A DNA stretch of 63,186 nt, filler included, from Psammoneis japonica (Eukaryota): assembly GCA_008632985.1 (NCBI GenBank). It is 3 parts of 3 records of this genome, joined end to end, with 100 filler letters (N's around TTAATTAATTAA, not from the genome) between each part and the next. Parts side by side here need not be neighbours in the genome. Positions count along the whole stretch, not along the records: positions 1 to 23,108 come from QPGO01000434.1; 2 more parts are not named here. One strand, given 5' to 3'. Numbering within the stretch: position 1 is the stretch's first letter; every line of letters starts with the position of its first letter. The notes below the pieces were generated by a model. The model ran no database searches. It was given only the letters and a program-made list of their open reading frames with translations, and was not told the origin of the DNA. This document shows, in pieces, positions 6,013 to 49,355 of this stretch. Both the position numbers and the translations under genes were made by a program.

Positions 6013-7983
6013 ATGGCAAATCGATACCCTAACATGCATCCGCCCTATCTGCCCTGGTCTGACAGAGAGCACTGTCATGCCACAATGCCTCCGCCCTCGC
6101 CTTTCTTCCCACCATGGATGCACGGATATGCCGCACCGCCAGATCCATTTACTGTTCAAGAGGGACAGCCACCATGGAGACCGCCGCCGCATCCCCTTTT
6201 TTGCCCACCACCTCGATTTGATTTGGAGAGGAAAATGAGCTCTAAACATAGGCTCTACTTCTATCACAACCGGTTTATTTCGAAGCAATCACCGTTCTGC
6301 CGGTCTCTTCTCGCTCAACCAAATGCAACCGAGGACAGCTTGCGTACTCTATCGCGTCAACTTCTACAAGATGGAATGTTCAACGTTTCTTTAGATGGCT
6401 TGTGTGAGGTTCGCGATCCATTGGCTCTTCATGATTATGCTCAGTATTACCAGTACGACCCTGTTCTCTGCCGTGCTTTGAAAATCGCTTCGGACAAGGA
6501 GCTATTGAAAAAGGACAGCTCTGCTCCCTTTAAAAATTCGCCATCGACAGGTTCAACGGGGGAGCCAACGCCACACACCCCTTTGCCTCAAAACAATTCC
6601 ATGGATTCTCCGCTTCCGTTGCGGCCCAAGCTCGCCTCTCCCACAGCGCCACCTCCCAAGCCAATTCGTGACTCAGATTTCTTATACTTCTCTGGCCATT
6701 TGCGAGTATCAAAATGGTGCAGGCTTACTTCAAAATGCGTCGACCAAGGCATCTCTGAGGATGACATAAAAGAAATATTCCAGACGCTCTACAAAAACAA
6801 ACTTTTCAACGTCAATGCTACAGGCCATTGTAGGATTATCCCAAACTTGCTTCCCCGCCTTGAGAAATTTACTACTCGGTTGGAAGACTCTCCCATGAAG
6901 CGGGCTTTGCAGTCGCATTTAGATGCCGCATCAGGGCTGAAGTCTCAACATGCAGCTGCTAAACGGTCGCGAGAACCACAGGAAGAGAGCGAGAGTATTG
7001 CCAAGCGAAAAAAGCCTTCTTCTGAACAAGCACTGGTACAGAGCAAAGTTTATAAAGACAACGCATATACTGCTTGCGTCAGTGCCGAGGTGAATCCAGG
7101 ACAGCATTCGCCCATGGAAACACCAGAGAAGGCCACGAGTGCGGTTCGTACGGGGAGTTCAACGGATTGCCAGAGCAAGGCTCGGAATGTAGATTGTCAG
7201 AAGACTCGACAGCGGTGCGAGAAACACAAGCCTAGCTCTTCCCGAGAATCTTCTGGTTGCGTCCACGCCAGCAAGAATGCAGAAAGGAAATCAGCCCCAG
7301 TTTCACCTGTGGTGGAGATGGCTGCCATTCGAACGAGCACCAGTACGGCAGGGGATTCGGTCATCGAGACTAAAGCAAGCAATAAGCAACAGCGAAATGC
7401 AGCGGTCGACGAGTACGAGGTGGACGCTGCCAATGAGAAGGTGCAGCAGTGCGAAAATTCCCAACACGCTCCGCTGAACCACAGTGGCTTGCAGCACTCT
7501 TATCTACAGGGTGCTCGTCATTTCCACGATTTGCAGGACTCCGGTAGACCTCGTCGCCGAAAACGAGGACGCCGGACAAGAAAACGGAGAAAGGTGGGTT
7601 CTAACAACAAACTCGACTCAAGCACCGACGTGGCTGCCAAGGGCCAAACCAACACCGTCATGGAGACAGATGCACCATTTGCCACTCCACGTAAGCCATA
7701 TCCGGAACGTCACAATGTGGATGCTGCTGTCGAGACGGAAATGATGACGAAACAAAAGCGAGCCCCCAATGATAGCAATATCGACAAAGCTGACGAGGCG
7801 TCGACGAGGGACTCAGCCTGTCTGCATTTTGGAGATAATGGACTGAATTGTGAATCACAAGACAACAACATGCAGAGACTCATGAAGGTTGCCAGAAAGC
7901 TCAACCTGCAGATAGATTGGACATCGGATGACCAATCGGAAGCCGCTGATGAGAGCTTCGGTTGTCACACTGTTTATTTGTAA
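6013..7983 (+). CDS. Uncharacterised protein (Pro-rich N-terminus, duplicated ~75-aa domain, low-complexity linker with basic NLS-like patch, conserved C-terminal motif)
   Basis: Long open frame (ORF 5752-7983). ATG 6013 (MANRYPN) chosen because it matches MANRIPN in the paralogue at 17645, and the upstream ORF part overlaps a TE end. Normal TA/Tyr content. Confidence 0.75.
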   Translation: MANRYPNMHPPYLPWSDREHCHATMPPPSPFFPPWMHGYAAPPDPFTVQEGQPPWRPPPHPLFCPPPRFDLERKMSSKHRLYFYHNRFISKQSPFCRSLLAQPNATEDSLRTLSRQLLQDGMFNVSLDGLCEVRDPLALHDYAQYYQYDPVLCRALKIASDKELLKKDSSAPFKNSPSTGSTGEPTPHTPLPQNNSMDSPLPLRPKLASPTAPPPKPIRDSDFLYFSGHLRVSKWCRLTSKCVDQGISEDDIKEIFQTLYKNKLFNVNATGHCRIIPNLLPRLEKFTTRLEDSPMKRALQSHLDAASGLKSQHAAAKRSREPQEESESIAKRKKPSSEQALVQSKVYKDNAYTACVSAEVNPGQHSPMETPEKATSAVRTGSSTDCQSKARNVDCQKTRQRCEKHKPSSSRESSGCVHASKNAERKSAPVSPVVEMAAIRTSTSTAGDSVIETKASNKQQRNAAVDEYEVDAANEKVQQCENSQHAPLNHSGLQHSYLQGARHFHDLQDSGRPRRRKRGRRTRKRRKVGSNNKLDSSTDVAAKGQTNTVMETDAPFATPRKPYPERHNVDAAVETEMMTKQKRAPNDSNIDKADEASTRDSACLHFGDNGLNCESQDNNMQRLMKVARKLNLQIDWTSDDQSEAADESFGCHTVYL

Positions 7984-8336: not shown

Positions 8337-9608
8337 TCAAGCCTTGACGGGACGAACGTAAACGTCCACATCGATGGGAGCCCACACATTGGTGCGATTG
8401 CCGTCCTGTAATTCGATCCTGTATGCATTTCCTTCGTCCCACTGCTTGAGGACTTTGCCGCGCTGAAATTCCCCAACGTTGGCTTCCACAATGGTCCCAA
8501 CCGGGAAACGCAAAGGCGCATCGGCACGACAGGCCATGAACCCGTTGCGATAGAAGTCATGATCCAAGTGTTTGCCGATAAAGACAAAACGACTCTCGCG
8601 CTTCTCGTTTTTCTTCCACTTGGCTGTTTCATCAAAACCACCCGAAAAGAGCATACCAACTCCCTGGAAGACGAACTTTTGGTTCATGCCCTTAACGGCA
8701 ATGACACCCTTGTAGCGGTAGAGGTTGGCTCCGTCTTGCGTAATGAGGCGCTGGATCCAGCGCTCCAGCATCATCATGTTTACGTCGCCTTCGACTTTGA
8801 CTCCGACAGAAGAGACAGTCTCGTCGTGCTGGTGTTCTTGATCTTCGTCCAAGAACTCTGGGTCAAAGTCGAGGACGCGACTAAGCTCAAACGCCTGAAT
8901 GTTCAAGAGGTCCTTGGGGTTCACTTGACTGTGCTTGGTGCGTTGAATCGTGGCAGTGGGATTGAGCGCCTTGAGCTCCTTCTCAATCTCGGCAAGTTTC
9001 TTGTCTGTAGACAAGTCGATCTTGTTGAGGAGAATCTTGTCGGCAAAGGCGACCTGTTCCACTGACTCGTTTTCGACACCCTCCGGTTTCTTCTCTTGGA
9101 GGCGCTCCATAATGTGCTTGGCGTCGACTACAGTAATGACACTATCGAGCCTGTACTTGGATTTGACTTCGTCGTCGATGAAAAAGGTCTGGCACACAGG
9201 CGCAGGATCTGCTAGGCCCTGCGAAGTAAGAGCAAGTCATGAGAATCCTGTGCTCAGTTAGGCCGCTTCCAGAAAAAGATTTTCACGTACCGTTGTCTCA
9301 ATAATGACACCCTGAAAGGTCTCTACTCGAGTGTAGAGATTCTTGAGGGCCTTCACCAAATCCCCGCGAATGGTGCAGCAAATGCATCCGTTCATCACTT
9401 CAATGACTTCTTCGTCAACATTCTCGGACAAAACCTTCTCATCGACTCCCACTTCACCAAACTCATTCTCAATGACGGCAAACTTCATACCATGGCTGGT
9501 ATCCCTGAGGATATGGTTGAGTAGAGTGGTCTTGCCTGATCCAAGGAATCCAGTGAGGATAGTCACTGGAACGACTGGCGTCTTGGCTCGTTTCGAAACA
9601 GGCGTCAT
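8337..9608 (-). CDS. COG0523/CobW-family (ZNG1-like) G3E metallochaperone GTPase; 2 exons (9608-9291, 9218-8337)
   Basis: GFLGSGKTTLLN Walker A, NEFGE, GCICC metal motif, ETT|GLADP split by a 72-bp GT..AG intron (9290-9219), NKID, CobW_C-like RYKG...VFIG. Confidence 0.95.
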
Positions 9609-10698: not shown

Positions 10699-13600
10699 AG
10701 TAAGACACCGGCGCAACGTTTCCTTAGAATTTGCCCCGACACCACCTCTATTTGCTTAGGGGCTGCTAGCTTGTTGGCTACATGGCACGGTGAATATATC
10801 GCATTAGTAAAGCGCCGCGTAACAATAAACAGCATCGTCCCAACAGATTTAGCTCTGTTATTTGTTGTTCCCAAAAACACTTGCATCACGCATCGATCCA
10901 CACCACCGCTTGTGTATTTTCAATTTCTGTCCTCGTCACATGCCAATCAAGTTTTGAACATAGCGAGCGTTCTCTGTTGTGTGTGAGTCACCTGATTGTT
11001 CGCTGCCCCACCAGCCTCAATGGACAGTCACTGCGGAGTGAGACTCACGATTTCCTTTGCAGGGTTTCAGAAACTTTGTGGTGGGCAAGGGCCTGATGTG
11101 TTGGGGAGGAGGAGTTTGCACTGTTGACAAACTCCCTCCTGCTGACAAGCATCCTCCTTTGAGGAGGTGGTGTGACAGCCTCCAGGACATTTCTTCTGAG
11201 GTTGTCAAGAGCTCGGTCTCTGAGTCTGCCGGCAAAGCCATGATGTGGATTGGCTGCTGGTCTTGCTGTCTTACATGGTTCAGAGATCTGGGGTGCATTT
11301 GCAGCACTTGGTTTCTGACAGCCAACACAGCACCCAGAAAACTGAACCTCTGTTGTGCCCCCCCTCTCAACAAACTTCCTGGGTGTCCCCCAGAGATGTT
11401 CAAGAATCTTGCAGAATTTCTGGAAGTGCTCTTGATGAGCCTGACCCCCTTCAGCTTCTTGTTCAATTTGTTTAAAATGGGGGCTGCTTTTTGACACACT
11501 GCAGCAGTTCTCAAGTGTGTTTCAACATCTGGGGGCACACTTCATGGTTCCTCTGGCAGTTGCCAAAGTTGCCACTTGAGTCTTCTGTGCTTCTTGTGGA
11601 ATGAGCAGCAAAGAGCAGCAAAATGAGCCAAACTCACCACACTTTGTTCCCCAGAGCAAGATTTGCTTCAAACAACTCCAAATTTGCCATGACACACAAA
11701 TCTTGATTGTCCAGATGCATGTCAAATCTGAGGACAATGGCAGTTTGCCAGCTCTGGCACTTTAAGATCAGCCACACATGATTTGATCATGTTGCATCTT
11801 GTGAGTGATGCACAAGAGCAAGTGCATGCATTGGGCCACAGCTGTCATCAAACAAAGACAAAACTGATTCCTCAAAGAAACAGGAGCAGATGAAGAGGAG
11901 GGGAGACAAGAAGATCCAACAATCAAACAGTCTTAAAGAGGAAATCCATTTGGCTGGCATTGCAAAGACAAAAGTTTCTGAGTTGAAAGGTCTCTGGTGA
12001 CAATGTGGGCTCATGGTGTCCAGCAAGAAAGCTTGTTTTTTGGAGATGCTGTGCAGCAGAAGATTTGTTTGACAGGATGAAAAAGTCAATGATGCAGTCC
12101 ATTGGTGAAAAAGTGCAGCAAAAGAGCTGCTCAAGTGGGGTCAACAAAAGCCATGACACTGGCTCATGACAGAAGCATGGGTGCCAAGGATGTCTGCTGG
12201 CAATGCCTGACATCTTCAGAGCCAGCTTTGGTTGTTTGAAGCATCATGTGAAGCATGAAAAAAATGCAAGACAATTGCCAAATCTAATGGAAGAACTTGC
12301 CCTTGCTCATGACAGATGCTTCTTCCCAAAGAAGGCACTCAGCTCCTTGGCAGACCACATTGGGAGGGCTTTTGGCAGAAGCCTCTTTAAAGTGGAACAT
12401 TGACAGAAAACAACAAGGTTCTGCAGTTCCAAAAGTGCCCCAATTTTCTCATGAGGAGTGCCAAGTGTTCTCTCTCTTGAAGCACTGCAGAGCACATTTG
12501 TCAAGAATCCAAAAGACACAGACACATGAGGACTTGGTGCAAACACCCAGGAAGAGCAGAGGCAAAAAGAAAAAGAGACAAAAGTGGGTGACAGATGCCC
12601 AAAACTCAAAGCATCTGAGCCAAACAAAACACATGCCACATGACATTTCACAGGACCCAAAAGAACTTCCTGCCTTGCTGCTTTTCCATGCATGATTTGG
12701 CCTGGGATGTGAAGGCAGCAGCAGCATGTTCTGTTTGGCAACTCCCACGCAGCTGGATGATTGACAAAAAATGCCACAACTTCAAGATTCATTGTGAACA
12801 ATGCAAGAACCTTCATGTTGTCTTTTTTTCATGCAGAGGGGTGTCAAGTGTAGAGTTTCAGGGTCAAAGATCTCCACGTTCGTCACACAAAATCTCAAGC
12901 ACATGGGGCACTGTGCCCAGAAATCTGTGCAAAAAATCTTCTCTTGGCAATCTAACAAGTTTCACAGTCTCAACAACTGACTCAGTCACAATGAAAGCAA
13001 TGGCCATTCTGTTCACTCACAGGGCAGGACAATGGACAAGTTGGTTGCACCAAGATTCAATGGGTCTGTCAACATGAAATGTTGTGGTGGGGGGACAAGT
13101 TCAACAAGCCACCCCAAACACTGTGCATGGTGTGCTGTGCACAATGCACAAAGGCAGTGGGGGTGGTGGTGCCAGCACCTGCAATGATGCATCAGCAAGT
13201 GTGGTGTCATCAAGGAGTGCAGATGGAACAGCAGGTGGGGGTTGGCAAAAGTGAGCAAAGCAAGACGGAAACAGCAGCAGCTTGTTGAGCTTCAGAGCAT
13301 GCTGTGATGGGCAAGCTCATTTGTGGGCACTGTGGGCAACTGGGCAATGTCATGGCTGAGACTCTTGGGGGCAATGGCATGGCTGACACTCTGAAGGCCC
13401 TGCAGCAGAGCAGTGTCACACCCTGGCCCAAAGCAAGCGGGGGTGGCTGGCTTCCAACCAAGGGGCCTTTTGGCTGGGGGGGGGGGGTTCGTCATGAGCA
13501 AGAAGACATCAAAGACTTGCAGATGTGGGACATTTGAGGGAGAAAGCAGAGCAGATGTCCCCAGGAGTGTGGAGTGGAAGATGCTGGCATGGCGGGGTTG

Positions 13601-13817
13601 GGCTGGCAGCCAAAAGAAGAGGCAATGGGCAAAGCAGCAGTCATTGCTGGAGAGCCCAAGTGTGCTCAATGGCAAGTTGGCGGGCAGCGGCAAGCCCATT
13701 TGAATGGTCAGCAGAAAAACAATTCAGGCAAGCCAGCAGTTGAAGAAGGTGATGGCTCGTGAGTGGCAGTGTCAATGGCGGCACACGGCATGTGTGTGGG
13801 AAGATGACGAGGGGCAG

Positions 13818-14489
13818 TGACAGGATTTGAACAGGATGTAGGTGCGCGCGAAATGTCGCGCGCCATTTTAGTTTGCCGCACACAGTTTTGTGTGCTCTTT
13901 AGTTCCGCGCGTACGCGCGCGATGCATTTTGCTTTTGAGCCACACGGCTCACAAGAACAACACCCTGATCATCACAGAAAATCTGTGGCACAGATTTGGG
14001 GTTCAGATTTGTTACAGATTTTCAAGGGGTCCGCAGAAACAGTTGCAGATTTTCAAAAAGCACAAATTTTCAATGATTCAGCGAAAACTGGGGTTGATTT
14101 TTGCTGGAACTCGGCTGATTCTGCGATCTTAGAAGAACCCTCCTGCAGGCCCGGCACGTTAAAAGCAGGCCCGGCACGGTCTGTGTGCACCCTGCGTGCA
14201 TTTGTGCTAAAGAGGGGGAAGACAGACGTTGCACAGATTCCAGATTTTCGGTTCTAAAAACTTGCAGATTTTGTTCGGCCCCTAAAAAATTCTTACAGAT
14301 TTTATTTTTCGGCACAGACTTTCTATGATAATCAGGGTACACCGGCAACAGCAGGGCCCTGGCCCGATTGTGCCGACTTGCACGTCTTTCGGCTCCTGCA
14401 ACGGTCTCTGAGCGGAGACTCATCTGCTGTCCAGACAGTGGCAAGGAGTTGTTGTTTGAATTCTTGCCATTTGCCTTCAATTCTTAACA
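13818..14489 (+). repeat. 5' LTR (contains MITE insertion)
   Basis: TGACAGGATTTGAACAGG...TTCTTAACA; matches the 3' LTR apart from the 375-bp insertion and small indels. Confidence 0.92.
13963..14337. mobile_element. MITE with ~25-bp TIRs and TA target duplication (Tc1/mariner-type signature) nested in the 5' LTR
   Basis: Left CA|CCCTGATCATCACAGAAAATCTGTG, right CACAGACTTTCTATGATAATCAGGG|TA; internal repeated (A/G)CAGATTT motif; absent from the 3' LTR. Confidence 0.85.
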
Positions 14490-15456
14490 GATTGACAGTC
14501 TCGCTCATTGTCAACCCATTGAGCAAACGCCATCATCATCGTTGATTTACCGACGACGCTTTTTTCAATTCCGCGTGGACCTCCGTGTGTGTTCTGCGCA
14601 TGCATCGGCAAGTCTACGCGCACTCAATGCCAGGCATCGGCAGGAATTTAACGTCACCGTCAAGTCTCCTTACAGCTGGACATCTGGATTGATTGCACTG
14701 CCTTTTGTTGCTGAAGACATGCATTCAACGGTCACATCCAAGTCTGTCCTTAATCCTCATCCCTTGATGTGCCCATTCAACGGTTGACGGTCAAGAACCC
14801 CACATGTTCAAAGCTCTTCGTCGCTGAAGACACATGTGTGCATCTTCACGGGCAAGAACTTGAACCCACTCTTCAGACTGCGGCTTTGCCACCACTCTAC
14901 AAGCACACCGAGTCCATTGTGCCTGATCTGCCCCGGACCACTGGTGCTCTGCAGTTCCACTGGGTCCATGAGGACGACTGTGAGAGCAAGCAGCCGTGAT
15001 TGCAGCCTGCGTTGGGGCGAGGGTAATTTCCCACATTTGTTTGTTCGTCCACAGCGCCTGGCGCCTGCGTCAACTGGCCAGCCTGATCGGGAAATCCAAC
15101 TGACATGAAACAAGAACGGTTCGGGGGTCTTGTCCACCTCCAGTCAGCTTGCCTGCAGGGGTTTACAACCCGCTGCTCCGCTCGCAAGCAACCCAAAGCG
15201 CCGCCAGCTGCGGGTTCGGACGTGCCGGCACAACTCTGCGGACCGGACAGGAAGCTCAGCAATTAACTGCGAACGGGTGGCACAACCCGGCGGCTTCTGA
15301 CTTGTGAGACAGCTCAAGTTTTCAAGTCAAGTGTCAAGTCGATCCCAAGTCATTTCAAGTCTGCTCTCCATCAAGTCGATCCCAAGTTGTTTCAAGTCTG
15401 CTCTCCCACTCCAGTCCACTCTCCAACTCTGGTCCCGGCACCCAATCAGTTGCACC

Positions 15457-16735
15457 ATGGTTCTCACCAGACAGCAACAAACCGATGGTTTTGAGCACGT
15501 TGTTGGAACTGTGCTTGCCCAAGGTGCTGGAAGCCCTCTTCATTTGGCTTTGACCCATGACGGCACGGACTCGTGCCAAGAACTGTTCACATTCACACCT
15601 TCCCAAATTGACTTGCTTGAGTGCGACAATGGCACCAATGTGATCCCATTGCCCCGAGGTTATAAGAACATGTTAGCAGCTCTAGCCAAGCTGTGCATTG
15701 TCAAAGCACACAAAGGCCTTGATGTCGCCAATGACTCCTCGTTGTTCACACATGATGAGTTCCTTGCCTGCCGCCTCAGCCCTGACTGCATGTCTTCTGT
15801 GTCCATCGGCAGCTCACCTCTTGCACCCCCGCATGTCACCAACTCGACCAAGGCACGCGACCCAGTGCGTGACTTCAAGCGAGGCATCAAGCGCAACCCT
15901 GCTGCTTTCACGGCTCTCAAATCCGACAAACAGTGGCACACTTGGCACACCTCACGAGGATGGACAACGCCACAGAGCTTGCATCGTCAAGGCCGTCAAA
16001 GATCATGACTGGAAAGTGAACGGCAACCCCGAGCTCACTAAGTTCATCTGCTCTGTCAACAACGATGAATGCGAGGAAGTCCTGGCCTGCAACGACATCA
16101 TGAATCACATTGAGCAAGAAGACAAAGACACTGCTGTTTGGAAATTTCGATGCATTGTGTCACACGAAGGACCTCTGAAGCCTCATGACCCAACCTGGAA
16201 AGGCTCAAGCTACAACATCATGCTTGAATGGGAAAGTGGGGAGATCATGTCTGAGCCTCTTGCCATCGTCACCAAGGACGACCCTGTCACCTGCGCCATC
16301 CATGCACGAGAGAACGGACTTCTCGACACTGATGGCTGGAAGCGGTTCCGCGCCATCGCGAGGCGTCAGAAGAAGCCATCCCACATGGCCAACCAAGCCA
16401 AGCTTCGCTCCTTCTGCACTGCACCTCGCTGCAAGTGCGGATGCAAAGTTCCCCGGAACTGCAAACATGCCATGTCCCTGGACGAACGCAATGGCAACCG
16501 CAAATGGGGAGATGCAACCAATCTCGAGATGGGCCAACTCGATGAACGCAAAGTCTTTCATGACTGCGGGCCCTCCGAGTCTTCCACTCCTCCTGCGGGA
16601 CACAAGAAGATCCGAGTGCACCTGGTGTGCGATGTGAAACATGAAGGCTCCCGCAACCCTGCTGACATTCTCAGCAAGCATTGGGGTCACTCCCAAATCT
16701 GGGACCTTCTCCGTCCCCTTGTGTTTTGGAACTTC
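15457..16735 (+). pseudogene. Copia gag (5' part) fused by deletions to integrase-RT linker, RT start and RNase H end
   Basis: gag FKRGIKRNPAAF..LK...W..W; pol EEVLAcNDI, WKFR.I..HEGPL, KGSSYNIMLEWESGE, DDPVTCAIhA, NGNRKW, KKIRVHLVcDVKH, then NPADILSKHWG. Deletion junctions near 15950 and 16648. Confidence 0.9.
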
Positions 16736-16787
16736 ATTCCATCCGAAGTCGAATCTGTTTCTGTGACTCCTCAAGCAAACTGGGGAG

Positions 16788-17066
16788 TGACAGGATTTGA
16801 ACAGGATTCAGGTGTGCGTGAAATGTCGCGCGCCATTTTAGTTTGCCACACACAGTTTTGTGTGCTCTTTAGTTCCGCGCGTGCGCACGCGATGCAGTTT
16901 GCTTTCGAGCCACACGGCTCACAAGAACAATGACAGCAGCCCGATTGTGCCGACTCACACGTCTTTCGGCTCCTGCAACGGTCTCTGAGCGGAGACTCAT
17001 CTGCCATTTAGACAGCAGTGAGGAGTTGTTGTTTGAATTCTTGCCATTTGCCTTCAGTTCTTAACA
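16788..17066 (+). repeat. 3' LTR (279 bp)
   Basis: TGACAGG...TTCTTAACA followed by TSD GGCAG. Confidence 0.92.
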
Positions 17067-17644
17067 GGCAGCAGCTGACAGCAGCACAACAAGAAGCTGG
17101 GGCCAGCCAGAGGAGCCAGGTGTGCCAACATCTGCGGCTGCAAGATTTTCAAGCAGCAAATGCAGCAAAAAGGTTCACAGTTTCAAGATGGACCACGTAA
17201 AAGTGTTGCAGCATGGGTTGGAAGAGATCGGATGGAAGGCATCATTTTTTGTTCATTGTTCGGCAACAGAATGTGCGATCGAGTGCAGGAACAAGAGAGA
17301 TGAAAGACGGCATGGCTTTGGTGTCATGCATGGGCACTTATGGCTTGTACGTTGAACGTACTGTACCGCTCCGAAATGAAGGTGATACAGGAACGAGTAA
17401 CATATTTAATGCATGCCCGTTTATTTTATATTCAAGTATGAATGTACCGGACTTCGAAACCAAAAACGCAACCTTCAAATCAAACTCGACTCCGTTCTGT
17501 CGTCTCGTTGAGATGCATTGATTGTGACAATGAAGCAGATGATCTTTTGTTCTTAAAACGCGTTCTATTTTGACGATGATACCGATGACGGCAAGCGAAA
17601 TAAGGTGCGAAAGGCGTCCCTCAGAAGCGCAGAACAGCAATGCT

Positions 17645-18544
17645 ATGGCAAATCGGATCCCCAACCTCTGGTTGTCCAACATCTCTCCGTCCGGGCCATC
17701 TCCCTCCCCTTCACAAGGGCTGCTCGGGCAGGCAATTGTGCCATCATATCCAATATCAGCTCGAGCGCAATTCATCCGACAGCGGCCATGGAGTCTACTG
17801 CCGCATCTACATGTGTCCCCACAACATGGTTTTGATTTTGAGAAGAAAGTGAGCTCTGCTCAAAGACTCTACTTTTATCCCAACCGTTACCTTTCGAAGC
17901 TATCACCGTTCTGTCAGTCTTTTCTCCCGAATGTAACCGAGGACTGGTTGCGTTCTCTAGCGCGTCAACTTCTCCAAGACGGAATGTTCAAGGAGTTGGA
18001 TGGCGAGTGCGAAGTTAACGATCCGGTTGCTCTTCATGCCTATGCTGATTGGTACAGCTACAACCCTGCTCTATGTCTCGTTCTAAAGATTGCTGCGGGA
18101 AAGGAGCTCGAGAAGCAGAATCAGAAGGGAGCGATGACGAACTGGACCGGTAACACAGGCAAAGTCGCTTCTGAGCAAAATTCTCAAGACAGAGCAATGT
18201 CTTTTCAGTCCACCAATGCTACCAACACTTCCGAACGCCGCACCGACACCATCATGAATAGTGCCGAGCATCAGAGTGCGGTTGCGACAGTTGAGAAGGA
18301 AATTCTGACGAAACAAAAGGAAACATGCAGTGATGCCACTATGGACAAAGATGGCGATGTGGTAACGGAGGGATTAACCAGTCGACAGCAGAAAAATGAG
18401 CTCGACTATAAGGAGTTACAAGACGACAACATGAGGAGACTAAAGGAACTTGCCAAAAAGCTCAACGTGCAGGTAGATTGGACGACCGATGATGACCCAG
18501 AAAGCCTTACTGAGAGCTGTTTGTGTCGCACTGTGTATTTGTAA
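17645..18544 (+). CDS. Uncharacterised protein, shorter paralogue of the 6013-7983 gene
   Basis: Shares RLYFY.NR..SK.SPFC.S.L...TED.LR.L.RQLLQDGMF...DG.CEV.DP.ALH.YA..Y.Y.P.LC..LKIA..KEL and C-terminal D.NM.RL...A.KLN.Q.DWT.DD...C.TVYL. Confidence 0.8.
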   Translation: MANRIPNLWLSNISPSGPSPSPSQGLLGQAIVPSYPISARAQFIRQRPWSLLPHLHVSPQHGFDFEKKVSSAQRLYFYPNRYLSKLSPFCQSFLPNVTEDWLRSLARQLLQDGMFKELDGECEVNDPVALHAYADWYSYNPALCLVLKIAAGKELEKQNQKGAMTNWTGNTGKVASEQNSQDRAMSFQSTNATNTSERRTDTIMNSAEHQSAVATVEKEILTKQKETCSDATMDKDGDVVTEGLTSRQQKNELDYKELQDDNMRRLKELAKKLNVQVDWTTDDDPESLTESCLCRTVYL

Positions 18545-19925: not shown

Positions 19926-21570
19926 TCACGCTGACGGCGTTTCAGGACTGACTATACTGAAATCACACGTATGAGGTACGGCAGAAGCAGTCAGGCGGGT
20001 CAGTGGCGCCTTGGTCGGGGGTGCAGCATCCACGCCGGGTGGGTGCTTCTGTGGCATGTTTTGTTGCCACCACATCAAGACAGCAACATTGAAATGGAGC
20101 ACCACCATGGCAGGCAACCATCACTGTGACAGCCATTGCTGTGACAAGAAGAAGTGTGAGATCCCTGTGATGCAAACCCCACATCAACAACCAAGGCAGT
20201 GAGACAGAGGGGGGTTTGGCTGCCAGCCGCGCGCACTTTGTGCGCAAAATGAGCTCGGCCACTCTGCTTCAGGGCTGATTGTGCTGAAATCAAATGCAGG
20301 ACCAGACACATGTGAAGCCAGTCATGTGTTGAAACAGTGTGCCAGCAGGTTCTGTGTGCCAAAAACTTCCAAGACTTCGAAGCTCCTCATGACCAAAGCC
20401 CCCCGAAGATGTGGAAGGTGGCTGGACCATCCTCGCCACAAGAAAGCAGCCAATCAAGGCAGTTGCCCAACTTGCATGCTTTGTCCTCTTTGTCATCTCC
20501 AGAGTTGTTGTTTTCTGTGACATTCCAACCTTTCTGATGATGCTTTGCTGGCTGGGCAGCCACGCTGAGTCTTGTCTCTTTGCGCTTTTGGACAAAAGCA
20601 CTTTGTGCTCTCAAGAACAGAGTTTTGTCACTCTCTTTGTTTTCACCAATGGATCCTTTGACACCCATCTCCTGGGCAGCTGTCCTTGCAAGACTTGCCC
20701 AAACTGGCTGAATTTGTGGCTTTCGTTTGTGGCCTGTTTCATCATCTCCTCCTTCGTCTCATCCTTGGCACACTGAATGATGCTGGCTTCCCAGGTGCCA
20801 CACCCCAAGGCGAAGATTCCCTTCTCTCAGTGTGTCATCCTCTGGCTTTCTTGTCATCAGCACTGGAACTGGCATTGCTTGAATCAGGTGAGCTCAAGGC
20901 ACGGCTGCTCTCACAATGCTTGTCTTCATCTTCAGATGTGTCGCCACAAACATCAGACCAAGAGCTCATGTCATTGAGGCACTGGCACAAGAAAGTCAGT
21001 TGCTCCCTGCACTTTCATTGTTGTTGTTGCCATTGTCCATGTCACATGGGCAAGGTGATTTGGAAGCACTGTGGTCCTTGTCCTTCTTGGCTCGATTCAA
21101 ATCATTGAGACCAGGAAACAACACAGACTTGGAGCTGGGCTGAGGGAAGCAGTCATCAAGGCATTGACTTGATTTTTCCTCCCAGAACATGTGCACTCAT
21201 TGTTGTTGGTGCTGCCCTCAGCACTGTGTGGATCAGGTGAGTTTTTTGTCTCACTGCTCTTGTCACTGCTGTTCTCATTGTCAGATGTGTTGTGGAGTTC
21301 AGAATGAGAAAGCTTGCCATCAAAATGACCATCTAATTTCTGGCTTGGACTCCAGAACTGCATCAAAAGTCTCTTCCTCCCATGGCATGATGCGACCTTT
21401 TTGTCATTGTTGCTGTTGCTGCACTCTTGCTCATGTTGAGCAACATATGATGTGGCAGACTTTTTGGGAAAAATTGCAGACAGGCAACTGCCTTTGCTGC
21501 TTTCTTCACAATCAATGGCTGGCTGGTGCTGGCCACCTCCAACAAACACAAACGCTCAACTCAGGAGTTT
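19926..21570. mobile_element. Decayed TE relic, TpA- and CpG-depleted
   Basis: Composition signature; abuts and appears to truncate the 5' end of the next gene. No family motif recognised. Confidence 0.5.
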
Positions 21571-23108: not shown

Positions 23109-23208
23109 NNNNNNNNNNNNNNNNNNNNNNNNNNNNNNNNNNNNNNNNNNNNTTAATTAATTAANNNNNNNNNNNNNNNNNNNNNNNNNNNNNNNNNNNN
23201 NNNNNNNN
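23109..23208. other. Artificial contig linker (N-run + TTAATTAATTAA + N-run)
   Basis: Six-frame stop spacer; identical structure at 46034-46133. Confidence 0.97.
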
Positions 23209-26200
23209 TCCTCCCCCTCTTCCGCAACGGTTCCATCCGCGCCCTCTACGACCAATCCCGTTCGATCCCTGCTCCCGACACATCCGACGAACCTCCTGAC
23301 TTTGACAACACATCCTACGCCCACTCCGCCCAAGTTGCCGCCAACGTCAATGACCTCCATGCCGCCTGCGCCCGGGCCACCTCCTCCCTCCCCATCGCCT
23401 CTCTCACCCCCGAACGCATGGAGCTTGTCAAGCAACTCCACCCGCCCCGCAAACACCCACCGCTTCCTTCCCCCCCATCCACCAGACACCACCGCTCTAC
23501 CTCCTCCCCCCTGCACTTCACCACCAACGACCTCCGCAAAGCCCTCGCTAAATGTCAACCAGGCAAAGCTCCCGGCACCTTTGCCGATTCCACCGACCTG
23601 TTCAAGGCCCACGCCCTCCACCGCCACTCCACCCCAACCTCCACCTCATGCCCCTGCCTGCTCACCTTCAAACATCTGCTTGACCTCATTCTTGCAGCAG
23701 ACATCCCCACATCCATCAAGCCCGCCTTTTCTTCCAACTGCTTCCTCGCTCTCCACAAAGACTCCTCCAACCTTTCCAAACTTCGCCCCATCGGCGTCGG
23801 AACTGCCCTTCGCAGAATCGTCGGCACCCTCATCATGTTCCTCTTTGCCGCCACCTTCGCTGCCAACCTCCTCCTCTCCGGCCAATTCGGAGTCGGCGTC
23901 AAAGGCGGTCTCGACCACCTGGTCGACACCACCTGTGCCAACATTGAGCAATTCTTTGACCCAGACTCCACTCCAACCAAGGCCCTCCTCCTCCTCGACT
24001 CATCAAATTGTTTCAATGAATGCTCCCGTGACGCTTGTCGCGACACCCTCGACAACTCTGACGAATGCCACCCCCTCATCCCTTTCTTCGACCTGCTCTG
24101 CCAAAACCCCAACACTTGCTGGTGCCGTGACCACCGCTTGCAATGGTCCTCCTTCTCTCAGCCCGAAGGATTTGCTCAAGGCTGCCCCCTCAGCCCTGCC
24201 TTCTCCTGCCTTGTTTTGGCTCATGCATTCCAACCCATCAACGACGACCTACATCGTCGACTCCCTCCCCGCTCCAAGTCTGCCACCTCTTCTCACATCA
24301 ACGACACCCACATCTTCCTTCCCTTCTCCCAGCTCCCCTGGTTCCTCAAGCGCCTTTCTACCTCTGGTCCCCAATTCGGCATCAAGCTCAACCCCTCCAA
24401 GACCCAAATTCTCACCTCCATCACCGGCTCCTCTCCCATCAACTGCCTTCCACCCTCCGACACTGCTGCACTGTCCGAGGCCCTAGCCTTCCTCAACCCT
24501 CACAACGATCCCCACATCACACCCGAAATCACCACCGGCACTCGCTTCCTCGGTCGGCCCATCGGCTCACCCGCTTTCGCCCTCGATTTCCTCTGCAATG
24601 AGGCCATTTCCTTTGCCACCGACCTTCATCGCCTCACCGTCCGGCTCACCGACAAACAAACACAGAGCACCCTCTTCCACAAGTGCTCACTCCCTTCCAT
24701 CACCCACCTGCTGTCTGTGGACGCATGCTGCAACCTTTTGCCCTCCGATGACTTTCCACCTCCCTTTCAGTGAGCATCCCCCTTCGTCGACAAAATCATT
24801 GGCCACTCCCTGCGATTCCTCACCTGCCTCACCCAATGCACAGACCCCCTTCCATCTGCCTCCAAACTCATTGCCACCCTGCCCGTCTCTTTGGGCGGCA
24901 TCAGATGTCGCGACATCTCCGCCGTCGCCATCCCTGCCCTCATCACCTCCCTCCTCTGCTCCATCCGCTGCACCAAACATGGCATCCCACTGACCGGTGG
25001 TGCCATCTTCCACCTTCCCTCAAGCCGCTCTTCTGCTCTTGGTTCATGGTCCAACCCCCGCTCCACCCTCTCCCTCTACCAAATCTTCCGCCACTGCGCT
25101 CCCACCCTTCTCAAGCTCGACTCCCCCTCTTTTACCTCCCTTTCGCACGCAGTCGAACACCACAACCTACGCGGTCTCTCACAGCGCCTCCACCTGCACC
25201 ATCACACACACCACACCCTCCCCTTAATCCTCGCCGATCCTTCCATCCAACCGACACTCCCATCCCTGCTGTCGCCCCTCACAAGCCTGTGCCTTCACTC
25301 CCCATCCCGCATCCCACCCTCCAATCGCCTTCTGCCCCATCTTTTCATGATCCTCCTCTTGCGCAAGCTCCGTCTCCCTGTCATCCCACCCAACCTCTCC
25401 CAACACAACTGCCCATGCGGTCACGCCCGCCCCGACCCATGCGGCGATCACGCCTTTGCTTGCTCCAAAATGCACAAAGGCCCCCTGTCCAACCACATCC
25501 GTGACACGGTCTGTGCAATCATCGAGACCCTTGGTCCTCCATGCGGCCTCTGCCGATCCCGCCAACAAGTCTGCCTTGACCCTGCCGGACTCCCACCCGA
25601 CCACCCTCTAAAACGCCCCGCCAACCCTCTAAAACGCCCCCCCAACCCCAACTCACCCCCGGCTCCACACCACCAGACGCCCCATCCACCCATCAATTCA
25701 CAGCAATTGACATCACCGTGCCACCCGCTCCCCCACCTCCTGCACCTGGTTTGCCTGTCCCTGAAAACCCACTTGACAAGGCTCACCTCAGCAGCACTCG
25801 GGACAAGCTCCTCGGCTGCTCTACATCCTCCGCCCACGGTTCTGACATCATCGACGCCATCAACCAAGCAGGCCTCTTCCTCCTCCCTTTCACCTTCGAT
25901 CACCTGGGAGGCATCGGACGCCACTTCCATCTTTTCTTTTTTGGCGCCTCCACCACTGCCTCCTCCTCCGTCCCCCCCCTCCCCCCAAACCGCCCTGGTC
26001 CCATCCATCCTCTTTCTCTAACTCTCAAGCATCCTTCTCTGCCTTCACCAACTCCCTTTTGGCTCCTTCCAACCTCCTCACCCAATCTAACGCGGCCTGG
26101 AAACAACTTTCCCCCGCCCACTTCAGCTCCTCCTGCCATGCTGCCACACCCCTGCTTTGGGCTTCCCAAACCCTCAGCCTCAACTTTGGCTTTGCTCTCT

Positions 26201-26370
26201 CCAACCATCTCTCTGCATGTCGAGCTTTCCTCCTCCGCCATCCCTCCATCACCAACTCCTCCTCCCGACCGTCCGTCCGCACCCTCGGCCAACCCTTTTT
26301 CTCTCCCTCTCCCAGCGCGCTCCGCGCGTCCGCGCGCTCCCTCCGCCACCTATTTCCCCAACACCACAAC
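23209..26370 (+). mobile_element. Non-LTR retrotransposon of the restriction-like-endonuclease group (CRE-like), decayed, 5' end lost at gap
   Basis: RT motifs KAPG, LRPIGVGTALRR, QFGVG, LLD.SNCFN, GFAQGCPLSP, ShInD (YxDD), GIKLNPSKT, FLG.PIG; LP..LGG; CCHC finger CPC...DHAFAC; RPA(D) and IDITV RLE motifs; very C-rich sense strand. Confidence 0.9.
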
Positions 26371-33169: not shown

Positions 33170-36100
33170 GTCAGGCTGCCAGAGTTGCAGCATTGCCGTG
33201 CTCTATGCAGGGTGCAAATCTCTGGGCACTCGTGGAGTTTCTAGAGACTGGGCACTCAGACAAGTCTCAGGTTGCAGAACCACCGCAGTGAAGGTCCGAC
33301 AATGTCCTCCCCTGTCCCTGGTCCTTCAAAGGCCGCTGCCCACTCCTCCTTCCCACTCAGAATTCCCATGTGCAAAACTTCACCCACCCCAAAAACTCCT
33401 CACTCATGTTCAAAACAACTCCCGCTCTGCAAAAAAGCTCTGCTCACACCCAGAAGGAGCATGCTTTGCTGCAGCACTTAAAAAATCACAACAAAACACA
33501 GCCAGCCCACACCCAGAAGCATGTTCAATGTGGTGGCAAGCATGAACAACTGTTGGTTGTGACCAGAGAGTGTCTCGCGCTGTGGGCCTGGCGAGGCGTG
33601 CAACAGCTGGGCCCAAGGAGGAGATGATGGAAATGCAAGCACAAGCAGAAAGCAAGCAACATTGTCATGACCAGCATGCCAGAGTTGAGGCCAGTGATGT
33701 GTTCCAATGCCAGTGGTGAGATCAAGCAACAAAAGACCATGTCAAGTTAAAGCTTCAACAGGGATGGCTCTTGTGCCAAAGGTTGTTTTGAAAGAGATTG
33801 ACAAGGAAAAGAGAGCTTCCTGCTAAAAGAGCAGCAGATGTCAAAATTGACTCAGCAGTTGACTTGGGGTTTGAGCAAAAGTGAGATGAGTGAACACTTT
33901 TTAGCAGCTCGTCAGGGTCGCTGCAGCGCCTCTTGGCTGCTCTCTGGCAGCCGTTTCTTGTTTTTTGTTTTTTGCTTGTGGCTTGTTGCATGGTCTCACA
34001 CTGTCAAGTTGCCAGAGTTGTTGCAGCAGCACGACAATGCCAGCTGTGTGGAGGAGTGCAGCATCTCTGGTGGGTGCTTGTGGAGTTTTTGGGAGCTTTG
34101 AACCAACAAGACAGCCTCTGGCTGCAAAGCTGTCATGTGGCAAAGATCTTGCAGCCAACGTCTTTTCCTGCCATGTCGCTTCAAAAACAGCTGCCCACTG
34201 ACTCCATCCACTCAGAACTCTGACATGCTGCAAAACTTCACGTGCCCCAAGAGCTTCTCGCTGACATTCAAAGTGACTCTCCTGCTCTGCAAAAGAGCTT
34301 TTCTCACAGTTTGCGCCAAGAAAATCTGCTCACACACAAGAGCTCACCTGCCCCAAAGCTCTGCACACAGCTGGAAAAAGCAGGCTTTTTGCCCACAACA
34401 CTCAAAGCCAAGGCTTCAGTCAGTGCCACATCCAGAAGTGCACTTTGTGCCTGCAGCACTCAAAACCAAGGCTTCTGTCAGCCCTGCAAGCACCCAGAGA
34501 TGTGCAGTGCTTTGTGCGGCAAACACAAGAGCAGCATTTTCTGGTTGTGACCAGAGTCTCTGATGCCTGCCTTGGGCAGAAGTCATGCAAACAGCTTGCT
34601 GGTCTGACCTGCTGATGAGCTTTCACTTGACTTGGCTGCTGCCATGCAAGTGGAGGTTAAAACTCTGTTCTCTTCATCAAGCCATTGAGCAAAACCGACC
34701 CCTCCAGCACTCTTGGCACAGCTGAAAACTTGCTCCAAAATTGGCTCACAACATGTGAATTTTTTGCTGAACACACAACAACTTGGCTTGTGCCCTGCAA
34801 GGGTGTCTTGCTGGGCTTTTGATCAAAATCTCATCTGTGGTGTCATTGCCTCTTTCTCATTTGGAAAACTTGGTTGTTGCTCTTGTTCAAAATTGAGATT
34901 TGCTCAATGAAAAACATGTGTTCTGGTTGTTGACCTTGCTCCTTCATTGTGAACAAATTGACTTTGACAATTCGCTGAATTGGCAAAGTGGGAGACCTGG
35001 CTTCATGAGAAAAGGCAGCTTGGCAGAGCTTTTGGGCCATGGTTGAGATTTGTCTTGAACTTGGCTGTCTTGCGTCTTGGTGTTCTTGGCTGTGCTGGCA
35101 CATTGCACCATGTTCCAATCTTTTGTGTTTCAATGAGAGTTGGTTTTTGTGATGGCTTTTCATTGCAAAACATGACAGCAATGTCCCTCCTGGCAGAAGA
35201 CAGCAGAGAACTTGTCAGTTTGGTGCATTTTCTTCAGCAAGAGTGGGTGCTGCAACACTGCTTTTTCTGCTCACCTGAGTGCAATGTTGCTGCACTTTAT
35301 TTCTTGTTTTTGTTTGTTTTTGTCAACTTGTCTGAGCTTTAAGAAACAAAAAAAGCATGGAAAAAAAGCATCAGTTTGTTGCTGTTTGCTGCAAGCTGCT
35401 TGCTCTCATGCCACAATTTTGTCCTCTTGACTTTCCTGTGGCTTTTCTGCATTGGTGTGTGCAGAGTCCTGGGTGTCATTGATGTGTTCCTGTCATGTTG
35501 TCATTGTTTGTGTGCTGCTTGGATTCATGCTGTGTTTTTGCATTGCTTTGTGTGAGAATTGCGCGCCTTTTTTCCATGGAGCCATGCCAGCTGTCCTGGC
35601 AATCATTGCCCACGTCCTTGGAAGCAGTCAGTTTTTGCAAAAAAAGCTTTTTGTCACACTCGCATTTGAAGTTTGGGGGTTTGTTTCAAGGTTGATCTTG
35701 TGGCTTGTGGCATTGTGGCCACACATGTCATGTTGTGCCCAACAGCAGCAGACTTGAACTTCCAAACTCCAGAGTGAAAGACCCCACAGCAGTGCCAGCC
35801 AACCTGACAACAGCAAGCTGAAGACTCTGGCTGTGTCTGTTGGTCCCCAGGCAACACCTTGAGAACTGCAGCTGGGCATTGCAAAGTTGATCTTGCAGCA
35901 TTGTGACTCCATGTCACCTTGTTCCCAACAGCAAAGAGTTGCTCACACCCAAAGGTTTGGTTGCCAAAGGATGGCATTTTGGATCCATGAGCAAAACTTC
36001 AAAAAGCAATGCATTGGGAGTGCCTGAAATGCAGAGAGTTGTTTTGCAGTGGCAAAATGGCTCAAGGAGAGAGGAGAAATTTGCAGCAGCATTTTTGAAA

Positions 36101-38850
36101 CAAGCTTCTTTTTGTTGGCAACACCAAAGAACTCTGTGACAAAAACAATGAGCCATCCTCCATTTCATCCTGATGCAAAGCTCATGCAAGAGCAGATCTC
36201 ATTGGAGGATTGGCTGAGGTGTGAGTTGGAAATGTGAAACTGGGCTTTGTTGGCTGGCTGCGTGCTGCACAAGAATTTTTAGAGGCTTGAAACCTTGCCA
36301 AGCTTTCCTGCTGCGAGTTGTCACAAGTGAGTCTTTGTGGCCAATCTCACCAATGATGCAGTTGTTGCAATGTGGCTTCAATTGTCCATGTTGACTTTTG
36401 CACAAAGCCAGCAAGCCAGTCGGCGCCAGCACTCAAACAAGCATGGCACACAAAAAGCCCTCTGCTGCAATTTTCTACAGCAAGAGACAAAGCTGGTGCA
36501 TTCTCACAGCAGCAACAAGGAAGAGCTGCACAGACAGCGGCCATGATTTTTGGCATTTGCCAGAAGAAATCTGCGGCCATCATGACCAAAATGGAGTGCT
36601 TGTTGTCAATCCGCAACTTCAAAGTGGCGCTGAATAAAGTGCAGATTCTTGACCCACAGCAGCAAAACCTGGGCCAATGTTGGGGCTTGTCAAAATTGTG
36701 AAAGCCAACACTGGATCATGGAAGGAAAGGACTCAAGCTTGCAGCTTTGTTGTCTGTCAAAAGGGAGCAATTCAATGAGAAGTTTGTTTTGAAAAGAGAG
36801 CATCTTTTCTTCATTGTTGTTGTCAGTCGGCTCACCATGCAGCAAGAATGGCATGGTGGGTTGCAACAGAGGGGCGCGCCATTGTCGCACACACAATCAA
36901 TCTTGGCCCTGGCCTCATTGAGCTGCTGAATGAAGCTGACCCATCTGATGCTTTTGGCACAGCCACAAACTTGGTTGTCCAAAATTGGCTCACAACATGT
37001 GCATTTTTCACTGTGCACACAATGACTTGTGAGACATGTCAAATTTTAAGGCAGCATGCCCTTGACCAGCAAAAATTGCTTGTGCTCCACAAGGGTGTCT
37101 TGAAGGGCTCTTCCTGCACTTTTTCTGTTCAAAACATGTGCAAGACATTTGGAGCTCTTTTTGTGCAGTCACTGGCTGACCTGCATCTGCAGCTGGGGCA
37201 AATTCTCATCTGTGCCACTGCCTTCCTCATCTGGAAAATGTGGTTGCTTGTGTTCAGAATTGAAATTTGCTCAATGAAAAGCCTGTGTTTTTGTTGAGTG
37301 CTCTTTCATTTTGAGCAAATCAACTTCAACAATTGCCCAAATTGGCAAAGTGGGATGAGACCAGACTCAAGGAAATTTGGTCTCACAGTGCTTGGGCTGT
37401 TGATCAGATTTGTTTTGAACTTGGCTGCCTTGCGTCTTGGCGATCTCTTGGCTGTGCTGGCACTGCATTGTGTTCCAATCTTTTGTGTTTCAACATTCCT
37501 GGCAGAAGACAGTGGAGAAGTTGTCAGTTTGTTGCATTTTCTTTGGCAAGTGTGGCACAATGCCTCCATTTTTGCTCGCCTGTGTGCACAATGTTGCAGC
37601 ACTTTGTTTCTTGTCTTTTTTTGTTTTTGTCAATTTGTGAAAGGAAAGTGCCAGTGTTTGTCATTGTTTGCTCCAAGCTGCTTGCTCCCATGTCACACTT
37701 CTGACCTCTTGCCTTTCCTGTGGCTTTTTTGACTTTGCTGGTGTGCGCCGAGTCCTGCGGGTGTTGTTGATGTCTTTTTCTGCAATGTTGTCATTGCTCG
37801 TGTGCTGCTGCTCTTGGGCACATCTTGTGTTTTTGCAGTTGTTGCAATGTGGCTTCAATTGTCCATGTTGGCCTTCGCACAAAGCCAACAAGCAAATTGG
37901 CGCCAGCACTTGAACAAGTGCGACACACAAAAAACCCTCTGTGCAATCTTCTGCAGCAAGAGACAAAGAAAAGAAGATGCATTTTCAGAGCAAGGGCAAG
38001 AAAGAGCTGTGCAAAGAGTGGAGACAATTTGGTGTTTGCCAGCAGAAATCTGCTGCTGTGGCCAAAATGGAGTGCAGTGTGCAAGCATGGACCATCAGCC
38101 CAGACAACTTGACACCCCAAAAAGTGTTTGCAGCGTGCTTGTTGTCAATCTGCAGCTTTAAAGTGGCATTGAATGAAGTGAAGATGGACTCACAACAGCA
38201 ATCTGAGTTGATGTTGGAATTGAGTTGCTGTTGGAATTTGTCAAAATTGTGCAAGCCAAGCCAAGCTGGGCAGAAGGAAAGGACCCAAGCTCACGGCTTT
38301 GCACACTGTCAAAAGGGGCTGGTTCGGTGAGAAGTTTGTTTTGAAGAGAGAGCCTCTTTTCATTGAACATCAAGTTGCAACAGAGGGGCACACCACATGC
38401 AAACAACAGATCTTGGTGCTGGCTGAGTTGTGTGGTGGTGCCCAATGCAACAAAGAGACAAAGAGCACAACAGAAAAAAAAAAACATGGAAAAGACCCCC
38501 ATGGCTGCTGAAAAAATTGACTGTCAAGAACCTCAAATGATGATGGCTTTGTTCTTGGCAACACTGGAAAATGAACCAGCATCAGAACACTGTTTGGAGT
38601 CACAGCTGCAGTGACTGCCTTGGCTTGCTTTTGAAAAATTTTGGCATCTGTGGAGAGTGCAAAACCACAGGCACAAAAAATTTGTTCCTCGCGTCAACGG
38701 ATCTTCTTCTTGTCAAGCACAAAGAACATGTTGCAGACATGCTGACTGAAAGCTTGGCATGAATTGTTGGTGTTTGCCAAATTGCTGAACCGCTGCATGC
38801 TGGATGCCGTGGCAACGCAATGTCCATCCTGCACCTTCTTGGTCGAGGTG
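33170..38850. mobile_element. Extremely decayed TE domain with internal tandem duplications
   Basis: Near-absence of TA and CG. Duplicated blocks ~33350-33570/34200-34560, ~34640-35560/36900-37830 and ~36355-36910/37835-38420. Confidence 0.65.
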
Positions 38851-49202: not shown

Positions 49203-49355
49203 AAGATTTGGTTGATTCTCAATTGTGTTGCATTTGAGAAAAAGGAATCATTGATGGTGACTGTGAGATTTTTGGTGTTAAAGAGAGGTTTGAAAATTTT
49301 CCAACGGCGAAAACAACTGGGACACAAGGCATGGAGCCACCCACAATTGGCAACA

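Follow-up and report, generated by a model that had tools for sequence, protein, structure and literature searches.

Why has a retrotransposon fragment on a diatom chromosome lost nearly all of the tyrosines that its relatives conserve? The question is raised by positions 15953-16729 of a 63,186-nt stretch of Psammoneis japonica DNA (assembly GCA_008632985.1). This whole stretch is referred to as the window, and positions are given in window coordinates. Positions 15953-16729 are the Pol remnant of a twice-deleted Ty1/copia long terminal repeat (LTR) element spanning about 13812-17067. The remnant was probably struck by a process that converts TpA to TpG or CpA, is aimed at transposon or other foreign DNA and spares host genes. 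The change runs from TA to TG or CA, is specific for TpA and symmetric between strands, is restricted to transposon-like blocks and is uneven between copies.

The open frame at 15686-16933 (+ strand) contains the peptides quoted in the original prediction, which had read Cys and His codons of the remnant as former Tyr codons. A search of the remnant against longer proteins gave 408 matches (best E = 1e-104, identity 51-61%), and an index-free HMMER search of a representative library gave 3072. Pfam applied to the remnant itself returned no family at E 0.001 or better. The best 120 of the 408 gag-pol homologues all carried PF07727 (RVT_2), many being 1800-1950 amino acids long, and these 120 were used for a column test restricted to homologue columns with at least 80% agreement. 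Tyr was kept in 1 of 10 conserved Tyr columns and was replaced by Cys in 4, His in 3, Arg in 1 and Trp in 1. Other conserved residues were kept in 99 of 115 columns (Fisher p = 1.2e-6). The conserved Tyr columns read TGY at four positions and CAY at three (Y, pyrimidine), so both strands were affected. Compared codon by codon with the homologue majority, the remnant had 49 mismatches: 7 single-step changes of TA to TG or CA, every one at a Tyr codon, 10 changes of CG to TG or CA, 8 other transitions, 12 transversions and 12 multi-step changes. The positions concerned are given below with homologue counts. Sister-copy states were taken from DNA contigs of one sample, possibly the window's own source, and represent presence in contigs only; among sequencing runs, three DNA runs of this sample and no RNA run contained the window sequence.

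16070-16072 (+), Cys TGC; Tyr is the homologue plurality (Y 41/120) and some sister copies still read TAC.
16088-16090 (+), Cys TGC in an invariant Tyr column (Y 120/120); a single step, TA to TG, from TAC.
16106 (+), His CAC in a plausible Tyr column (Y 52, H 47 of 120).
16196 (+), Trp TGG in a Tyr column (Y 99/120); not a single-step change.
16211-16213 (+), surviving conserved Tyr, TAC (Y 106/120).
16301-16303 (+), His CAT in an invariant Tyr column (Y 120/120); TA to CA, from TAT.
16430-16438 (+), TGC AAG TGC, two Cys at Tyr columns (16430, Y 99/120; 16436, Y 103/120); TA to TG.
16442 (+), likelier of Phe origin (F 80, Y 36 of 120).
16460-16462 (+), Cys TGC in a Tyr column (Y 106/120).
16547-16549 (+), Arg CGC in an invariant Tyr column (Y 120/121), both TA letters changed; most sister copies read TGC.
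16601-16603 (+), His CAC in a Tyr column (Y 99/121).
16628 (+), likelier of Phe origin (F 83, Y 36 of 127).
16688-16690 (+), His CAC in a Tyr column (Y 99/109).
16720-16721 (+), TG in the window and CA in all sister contigs listed (codon from 16721: L 96, M 12 of 108 homologues); one ancestral YpR (pyrimidine-purine) site resolved two ways.

Eleven Cys or His codons had been flagged as former Tyr. The assignment is firm for seven (16088, 16301, 16430, 16436, 16460, 16601 and 16688) and plausible for two (16070 and 16106), and is doubtful for two that are likelier to derive from Phe (16442 and 16628). The flagged list was also incomplete, as Tyr-column losses at 16547 (CGC) and 16196 (TGG) had been overlooked. 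The one Tyr described as escaping, in the peptide KGSSYN, is the TAC at 16211. An excess of Tyr to Cys or His had been expected from a tabulation against homologues, and was found in the column counts given above. The Cys and His codons are not native to intact homologues, which have Tyr at the conserved columns. These columns, together with the 6 of 6 conserved Tyr kept by a host CobW gene, bear out the view that TA is ancestral. Damage to the protein without stop codons was likewise correctly anticipated: no sense codon becomes a stop when TA changes to TG or CA, and TAA and TAG are erased. Beside the loss of TA, the remnant is dead also through its two large internal deletions.

The TA content of the whole window (observed/expected ratio, o/e, 0.31) was bimodal, and eight purged blocks were delimited.

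1-820, 10962-13800, 15265-17198 and 19978-21333, purged blocks.
23550-26350, 33243-38865, 43166-44048 and 46347-63186, purged blocks (continued).

Together these blocks comprise 33,096 bp with o/e values of 0.05 for TA (106-107 TAs), 0.49 for CG, 1.63 for TG and 1.57 for CA, compared with 0.56 for TA and 0.95 for CG in the rest of the window. AA, TT and AT were not depleted in the purged blocks, which contain 3246 TG and 3360 CA. TA-free stretches of at least 200 bp numbered 54, the longest being 1457 bp. Stops in all six frames of the purged blocks were 1502 TGA, 109 TAA and 56 TAG, and the scarcity of TAA and TAG leaves many long open frames on both strands. One of these, the open reading frame (ORF) at 60219-61718 (- strand), encodes 500 amino acids with 0 Tyr. 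Its sole public homologue is 59% identical and without a Pfam domain, and where that homologue has an aligned Tyr (19 positions) the window reads Cys 9, His 5, Phe 3, Arg 1 and Ile 1. A search of the ESM Atlas with this ORF gave no usable match.

Host genes of the same window kept their Tyr. The CobW gene at 8337-9236 (- strand), compared with its own 120 homologues, retained Tyr in 6 of 6 conserved columns and other residues in 161 of 166. Its named homologues are all from diatoms (Nitzschia, Conticribra, a Bacillariaceae metagenome-assembled genome and Pseudo-nitzschia; 70-75% identity), and others reach 81% identity. Ten host-like ORFs contained 3.08% Tyr (128 Tyr in 4157 amino acids), and nine ORFs in TA-poor blocks contained 0.15% Tyr, 4.4% Cys and 4.9% His (3228 amino acids). 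The host genes therefore indicate a standard genetic code and a local effect. A Tyr to Cys/His pattern shared with host genes, which the original prediction had treated as the sign of a code change, was not present in CobW or in the host-like ORFs. Two diverged repeat pairs were noted in host-like DNA of normal TA content, 17778-18108 with 6164-6503 (74%) and 42739-42943 with 2290-2066 (80%).

The spectrum of change was polarised in a related copia family. The alignment covered at least 4 of the 10 Tyr columns in 269 homologues, of which six, all predicted proteins (P0132, P0145, P0224, P0232, P0237 and P0255), had 0-2 Tyr, with Cys or His at Tyr columns in a pattern that in each differed from that of the window. 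Their sources are Logan, ENA and JGI assemblies, in which they were predicted by reading through copia remnants purged of TA. One of the six led to 62 metagenome loci (L001-L062) of one copia family related to the window element, with whole-locus TA o/e from 0.04 to 0.83. In an alignment of 32 copies, the 11 that are rich in TA served to define the ancestral state, and 44 TA sites were obtained. In six heavily affected copies the loss of TA sites amounted to 70-91% (for example 21/23, 28/33 and 17/23, these three diverging by a few percent in background), and among copies at similar background divergence (2-4%) the loss ranged from 9% to 91%. When the six heavy copies were pooled, 147 of 185 TA sites were lost; for A and T outside TA the figures were 3.8% and 5.6%. 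Within TA, A>G was found at 81/185 and T>C at 66/185; elsewhere the counts were 53/1405 and 46/816. Sorted by 5' neighbour, the A>G frequency was 0.397 after T, 0.056 after A, 0.043 after C and 0.022 after G. Both TG and CA occurred among copies at 27 of the 44 TA sites, and double changes were seen in only 2 cells.

Flanking bases modulated the loss. In the metagenome family 55% of TA sites were lost behind a 5' A or G, 40% behind C and 33% behind T, mirrored on the 3' side. The TA survivors in the window's purged blocks were enriched for TTAA (29% vs 4.3% in the rest of the window) and for CTAA/TTAG (24% vs 8.4%), and ATAT was absent from them (0 vs 7.4%). RTAY sites (R, purine; ATAT, GTAC, ATAC) are nearly gone while TTAA and CTAA/TTAG persist. 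Window survivors and metagenome family both point to RTAY as the preferred site.

The structure of the element was determined by tblastn with five full-length homologues, which found only three pieces left in this copy (amino acids 18-172, 1190-1420 and 1876-1904 of the best homologue, P0001), the gag piece (amino acids 18-172) matching 15490-15954. The core of reverse transcriptase (RT), integrase and protease were not among the pieces matched by these five homologues or by Pfam. RVT_2 spans amino acids 1401-1610 of P0001, so the core Pol piece is the stretch just upstream of RT together with the first residues of RT. The element has the RVT_2-bearing gag-pol homology and the flanking direct LTRs of a Ty1/copia element. 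Its parts are as follows.

10962 to about 17198 (no strand), TA-poor domain holding the element, from the TA map; TA density shifts sharply at both edges.
13812-14490 (+), 5' LTR, split by a 401-bp insert at 13961-14361.
15457-15954 (+), N-terminal part of gag (about amino acids 1-172 in full-length homologues), in a frame different from that of the Pol piece; 1 Tyr in 166 amino acids.
15955-15956 (no strand), deletion junction 1; the remaining gag, protease and integrase are gone and P0001 coordinates jump from amino acid 172 to 1190.
15953-16648 (+), core Pol piece, P0001 amino acids 1190-1420; about 210 amino acids upstream of RT and the first ~20 residues of RVT_2.
16641-16643 (no strand), deletion junction 2; RT core and RNase H are gone and P0001 coordinates jump from amino acid 1420 to 1876.
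16643-16729 (+), Pol C-terminal tail, P0001 amino acids 1876-1904, alignment columns 240-267.
16782-17067 (+), 3' LTR, a direct repeat of the 5' LTR blocks.

The LTR blocks pair as 13812-13960 with 16782-16930 (93%) and 14362-14490 with 16939-17067 (91%). The insert in the 5' LTR is only partly TA-poor (11 TAs, TA o/e 0.38) and may be a later arrival. Sister-copy contigs diverge from the window exactly at 15955/15956 and at 16641/16643, which confirms the two internal deletions; the loose end of the sister copies at 16641 carries on into RT like the homologues, as judged by eye.

In total, 4840 contigs were placed. Summed word depth was 3e4 to 1.5e5 on the element and 30-90 on its flanks; as a rough sign of copy number, this suggests that the element belongs to a high-copy family. 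Among the differences listed, 16071 was A (TAC) in 7240.6 of 50899.1 depth (14%, 11 contigs) and 16547 was T (TGC) in 1300.7 of 1538.9 depth (85%). Most listed differences were TG or CA in the window against CG in the other copies, that is, private CpG decay. LTRs are normally identical at integration. Pairwise alignment of the two LTR cores gave 20 differences: 2 transversions, 3 of TA against TG or CA, 5 of CG against TG or CA, 8 at four sites where TG of one LTR faces CA, and 2 other transitions. Given identity at integration, this pattern suggests that the same YpR sites decayed independently in the two LTRs after integration.

Block 19978-21333 bears on the part played by repetition. It consists of 1356 bp without any TA and adjoins a fatty-acid desaturase gene. 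One contig of 8983 bp covers it without differences and at unique depth (32.7), so present-day repetition is not a requirement for a purged block. With respect to repeat dependence of the kind seen in repeat-induced point mutation (RIP), the copia family stands at very high summed depth, yet this TA-free block is at unique depth.

Most purged blocks are without a recognisable protein family, and Pfam gave sub-threshold matches only for 88 purged-block ORFs. A Plavaka transposase match at 53631-54182 (+ strand; E 0.016) was sub-threshold and too weak for use. Among 26 long ORFs scanned, the ORF at 23157-24773 had a sub-threshold RVT_1 match (E 3e-6, 27.5 bits vs a cut-off of 29.6). This ORF extends into block 23550-26350, whose + strand is 45% C (C 1264, G 401) with mostly C-ending codons; the block is a strand-skewed element of another kind.

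CpG decay acted as a second process in the same DNA, and part of the Cys and His codons derive from Arg in this way, not from Tyr.

15980-15982 (+), Cys TGC at an Arg column (R 89/120), CpG decay.
16151 (+), Cys TGC at an Arg column (R 95/120), CpG decay.
16247 (+), ATG from ACG (T 119/120), CpG decay.
16271 (+), ACC from GCC after C (A 115/120), CpG decay.
16382 (+), His CAC at an Arg column (R 118/120), CpG decay.
16415 (+), Cys TGC at an Arg column (R 68/120), CpG decay.

Changes of CG to TG or CA were in excess (10/49 homologue mismatches and 5/20 LTR differences, with CG o/e 0.49 in purged blocks). Across blocks CG o/e ranged from 0.11 to 0.81 while TA o/e stayed at or below 0.11; CpG and TA decay vary independently between blocks. 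Strongly CpG-poor blocks were 10962-13800 (0.11), 33243-38865 (0.19) and 19978-21333 (0.25), and higher values were found in TA-poor blocks 46347-63186 (0.61) and 23550-26350 (0.81). Methylated LTR elements are described for another diatom in Maumus 2009 (PMC2806351).

A mechanism can be proposed for these changes. A change of A to G on either strand would convert TpA to TpG or CpA; in coding sequence Tyr (TAY) would become Cys (TGY) or His (CAY), and TAA and TAG stops would be erased. After a change on one strand the site would no longer be TA and the A of the other strand, now behind C, would be protected, which fits the rarity of double changes. The process would act on chromosomal DNA after integration and would be enzymatic, the simplest form being deamination of adenine to inosine in a 5'-TA context, as proposed for the chlorarachniophyte Bigelowiella natans. 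Ordinary CpG decay (CG to TG or CA), as expected for methylated diatom transposons, runs in parallel and changes Arg to Cys or His.

Several points weigh against this account. Neither an enzyme nor inosine nor a base modification was observed. Ancestral residues of the remnant were read from homologue outgroups that are only 51-61% identical to it, in place of an intact consensus of its own family. TGC at 16071 is common to 86% of sister depth; Cys states common to sister copies suggest that some TA was lost before the subfamily spread, and part of the loss may thus be neither private nor post-integration. As the contigs are possibly the window's own source, they give no independent proof against an assembly artefact. 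Replication intermediates are in principle another place where the LTR differences could have arisen. An ancestral state taken from TA-rich copies leans to TA, a bias offset by the finding of two outcomes at 27 of the 44 sites.

The main mechanistic rival is a heritably modified base (for example a modified adenine or hydroxymethylated thymine) at palindromic TpA in silenced transposon chromatin, which would mispair or deaminate as methylated CpG does. TpA is self-complementary like CpG, and both give TG and CA products in the same blocks. The flank preference, seen in two data sets, is for a 4-bp palindromic class, RTAY over YTAR. 5-Hydroxymethyluracil prefers TpA in dinoflagellates. Steady decay of this kind is nevertheless the less suitable explanation for a TA loss that varies from 9% to 91% at similar divergence, which suits an activity that is switched on, as do the bursts reported for only some B. 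natans lines by Mettrop et al. 2026 (bioRxiv 10.64898/2026.01.13.699255). We regard a modified base as unlikely.

Editing within the retrotransposition cycle would act through an ADAR- or ADAT-like enzyme on genomic RNA, or a deaminase on single-stranded cDNA, and be fixed by integration. That the target is a retrotransposon would suit it, as would the many sister contigs that have the window's Cys codons in common, as if edited copies were inherited, and the 5' U favoured by ADAR (Discussion of bioRxiv 10.64898/2026.01.13.699255). Such editing is made improbable, however, by sense-strand A>G and T>C of similar number (81 vs 66), by the 4 Cys vs 3 His at conserved Tyr columns and by a 5' preference (T 0.397 vs A 0.056) far sharper than the U~A preference of ADAR. 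Purging also extends to ORFs without a known retroelement family and to the TA-free 1356-bp block at 19978-21333, which is covered by one contig at unique depth, and in B. natans the reported targets are integrated DNA viruses.

An artefact of sequencing or assembly, such as systematic long-read miscalls at modified TpA, might be supposed from the unrecorded library type of the sample and from contigs that may be the window's own source. We hold it to be very improbable: Logan, ENA and JGI assemblies also contain predicted proteins with the Tyr to Cys/His signature, TA loss is graded across the 62 metagenome loci in several assemblies, some copies keep TAC, and the same assembly shows N gaps in the window and a normal TA content in host DNA. 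Neither a change of genetic code nor selection against TA within the element has more in its favour than the raw lack of TA. Both were rejected with near certainty, as host genes use TAY for conserved Tyr (6/6; 128 Tyr in 4157 amino acids), and invariant Tyr were lost, LTRs and non-coding DNA purged and two large deletions suffered by an element whose function selection would have had to preserve.

With TpA-directed A-to-G change on the chromosome retained as the preferred explanation, a wider proposal has an even chance of being correct in our judgement: that diatoms run a RIP-like chromosomal defence in the direction reverse to RIP, a TpA-specific (best RTAY) A-to-G editor aimed at silenced transposons and foreign DNA that is old and widespread in the stramenopile-alveolate-Rhizaria (SAR) group. 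That a chlorarachniophyte shares the signature with copia relatives of several environmental assemblies would make the system old and widespread in SAR. If the proposal is true, the editor can erase more than 90% of the TA steps of a copy without ever making a stop codon, and the system can be mapped across metagenomes by its Tyr to Cys/His signature alone. A TpA-directed A-to-G mutator on invading DNA was first reported in 2026, from one rhizarian alga, and occurrence in a diatom widens the phenomenon to a major and genetically tractable algal group. Tyr to Cys/His at invariant Pol columns provides a simple protein-level marker, and the RTAY flank preference is a constraint that any candidate enzyme must explain. 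Through removal of TAA and TAG, long open frames arise from which gene callers yield Tyr-free 'proteins', several of them already in public collections.

For another lineage the phenomenon has already been published. Mettrop et al. 2026 (bioRxiv 10.64898/2026.01.13.699255) describe TpA hypermutation of integrated viral and foreign DNA in B. natans. In mutation-accumulation lines, two integrated viral regions received 231 of the 302 new mutations; with one exception these were A>G or T>C, always at TpA, and some lines acquired them at about 1e-7 to 1e-6 per site per generation. Low-TpA genes were enriched for reverse-transcriptase and DDE-endonuclease domains, and an ADAT2-like deaminase was proposed as the enzyme (same preprint). 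The main text of the preprint contains 0 mentions of diatom, tyrosine or retrotransposon, and the Tyr to Cys/His read-out, co-occurring CpG decay and RTAY preference were not found in its abstract, Results or Discussion. In the openly accessible literature searched, TpA-specific hypermutation was found only in this preprint and none was found for diatoms; a term search of the available text of Maumus 2009 (PMC2806351) and Hoguin 2023 gave no TpA or dinucleotide statement. New here are a purge that is almost complete, the use of Tyr to Cys/His as a marker, CpG decay alongside the loss of TA, a preference for RTAY and the occurrence in diatom and environmental copia elements.

Compared with known systems, the process resembles RIP of ascomycete fungi as a dinucleotide-specific storm of transitions that kills chromosomal transposon copies one by one. 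RIP, in contrast, proceeds by C>T at CpA and creates TpA and stops, whereas here TpA is destroyed, CpA and TpG are gained and stops are removed; C>T at CpA with gain of TpA was not found. CpG decay by deamination of 5-methylcytosine likewise turns a palindromic dinucleotide into TG or CA on either strand and is present in the same element, but its target is CG, not TA, and its strength varies independently. ADAR hyperediting and APOBEC3 in animals share deaminase-type transitions that inactivate retroelements, but act on RNA or single-stranded cDNA and on one strand; here both strands are equally affected behind a strict 5' T. The ADAR pattern, A>G on the transcribed strand only with 5' U ~ A > C > G, does not describe the 81 A>G and 66 T>C observed. 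The likeness to B. natans, as described in the preprint, extends to A>G and T>C at TpA only, giving TpG and CpA, to foreign or transposon-like DNA being struck with host genes spared, to clustered TA-poor regions rich in CA and TG, and to targets struck unevenly. The host there is a chlorarachniophyte and here a diatom (a stramenopile) with an LTR retrotransposon as target; TA o/e is 0.05 here vs 0.45 in the giant-virus region of B. natans, and a static signature is read here, whereas new mutations were measured there. The confinement of A>G and T>C to TpA that characterises the B. natans system was found by polarisation in the related family and in the window through Tyr codons and the o/e values of TA, TG and CA, and within the window transposon DNA was targeted and host genes were spared.

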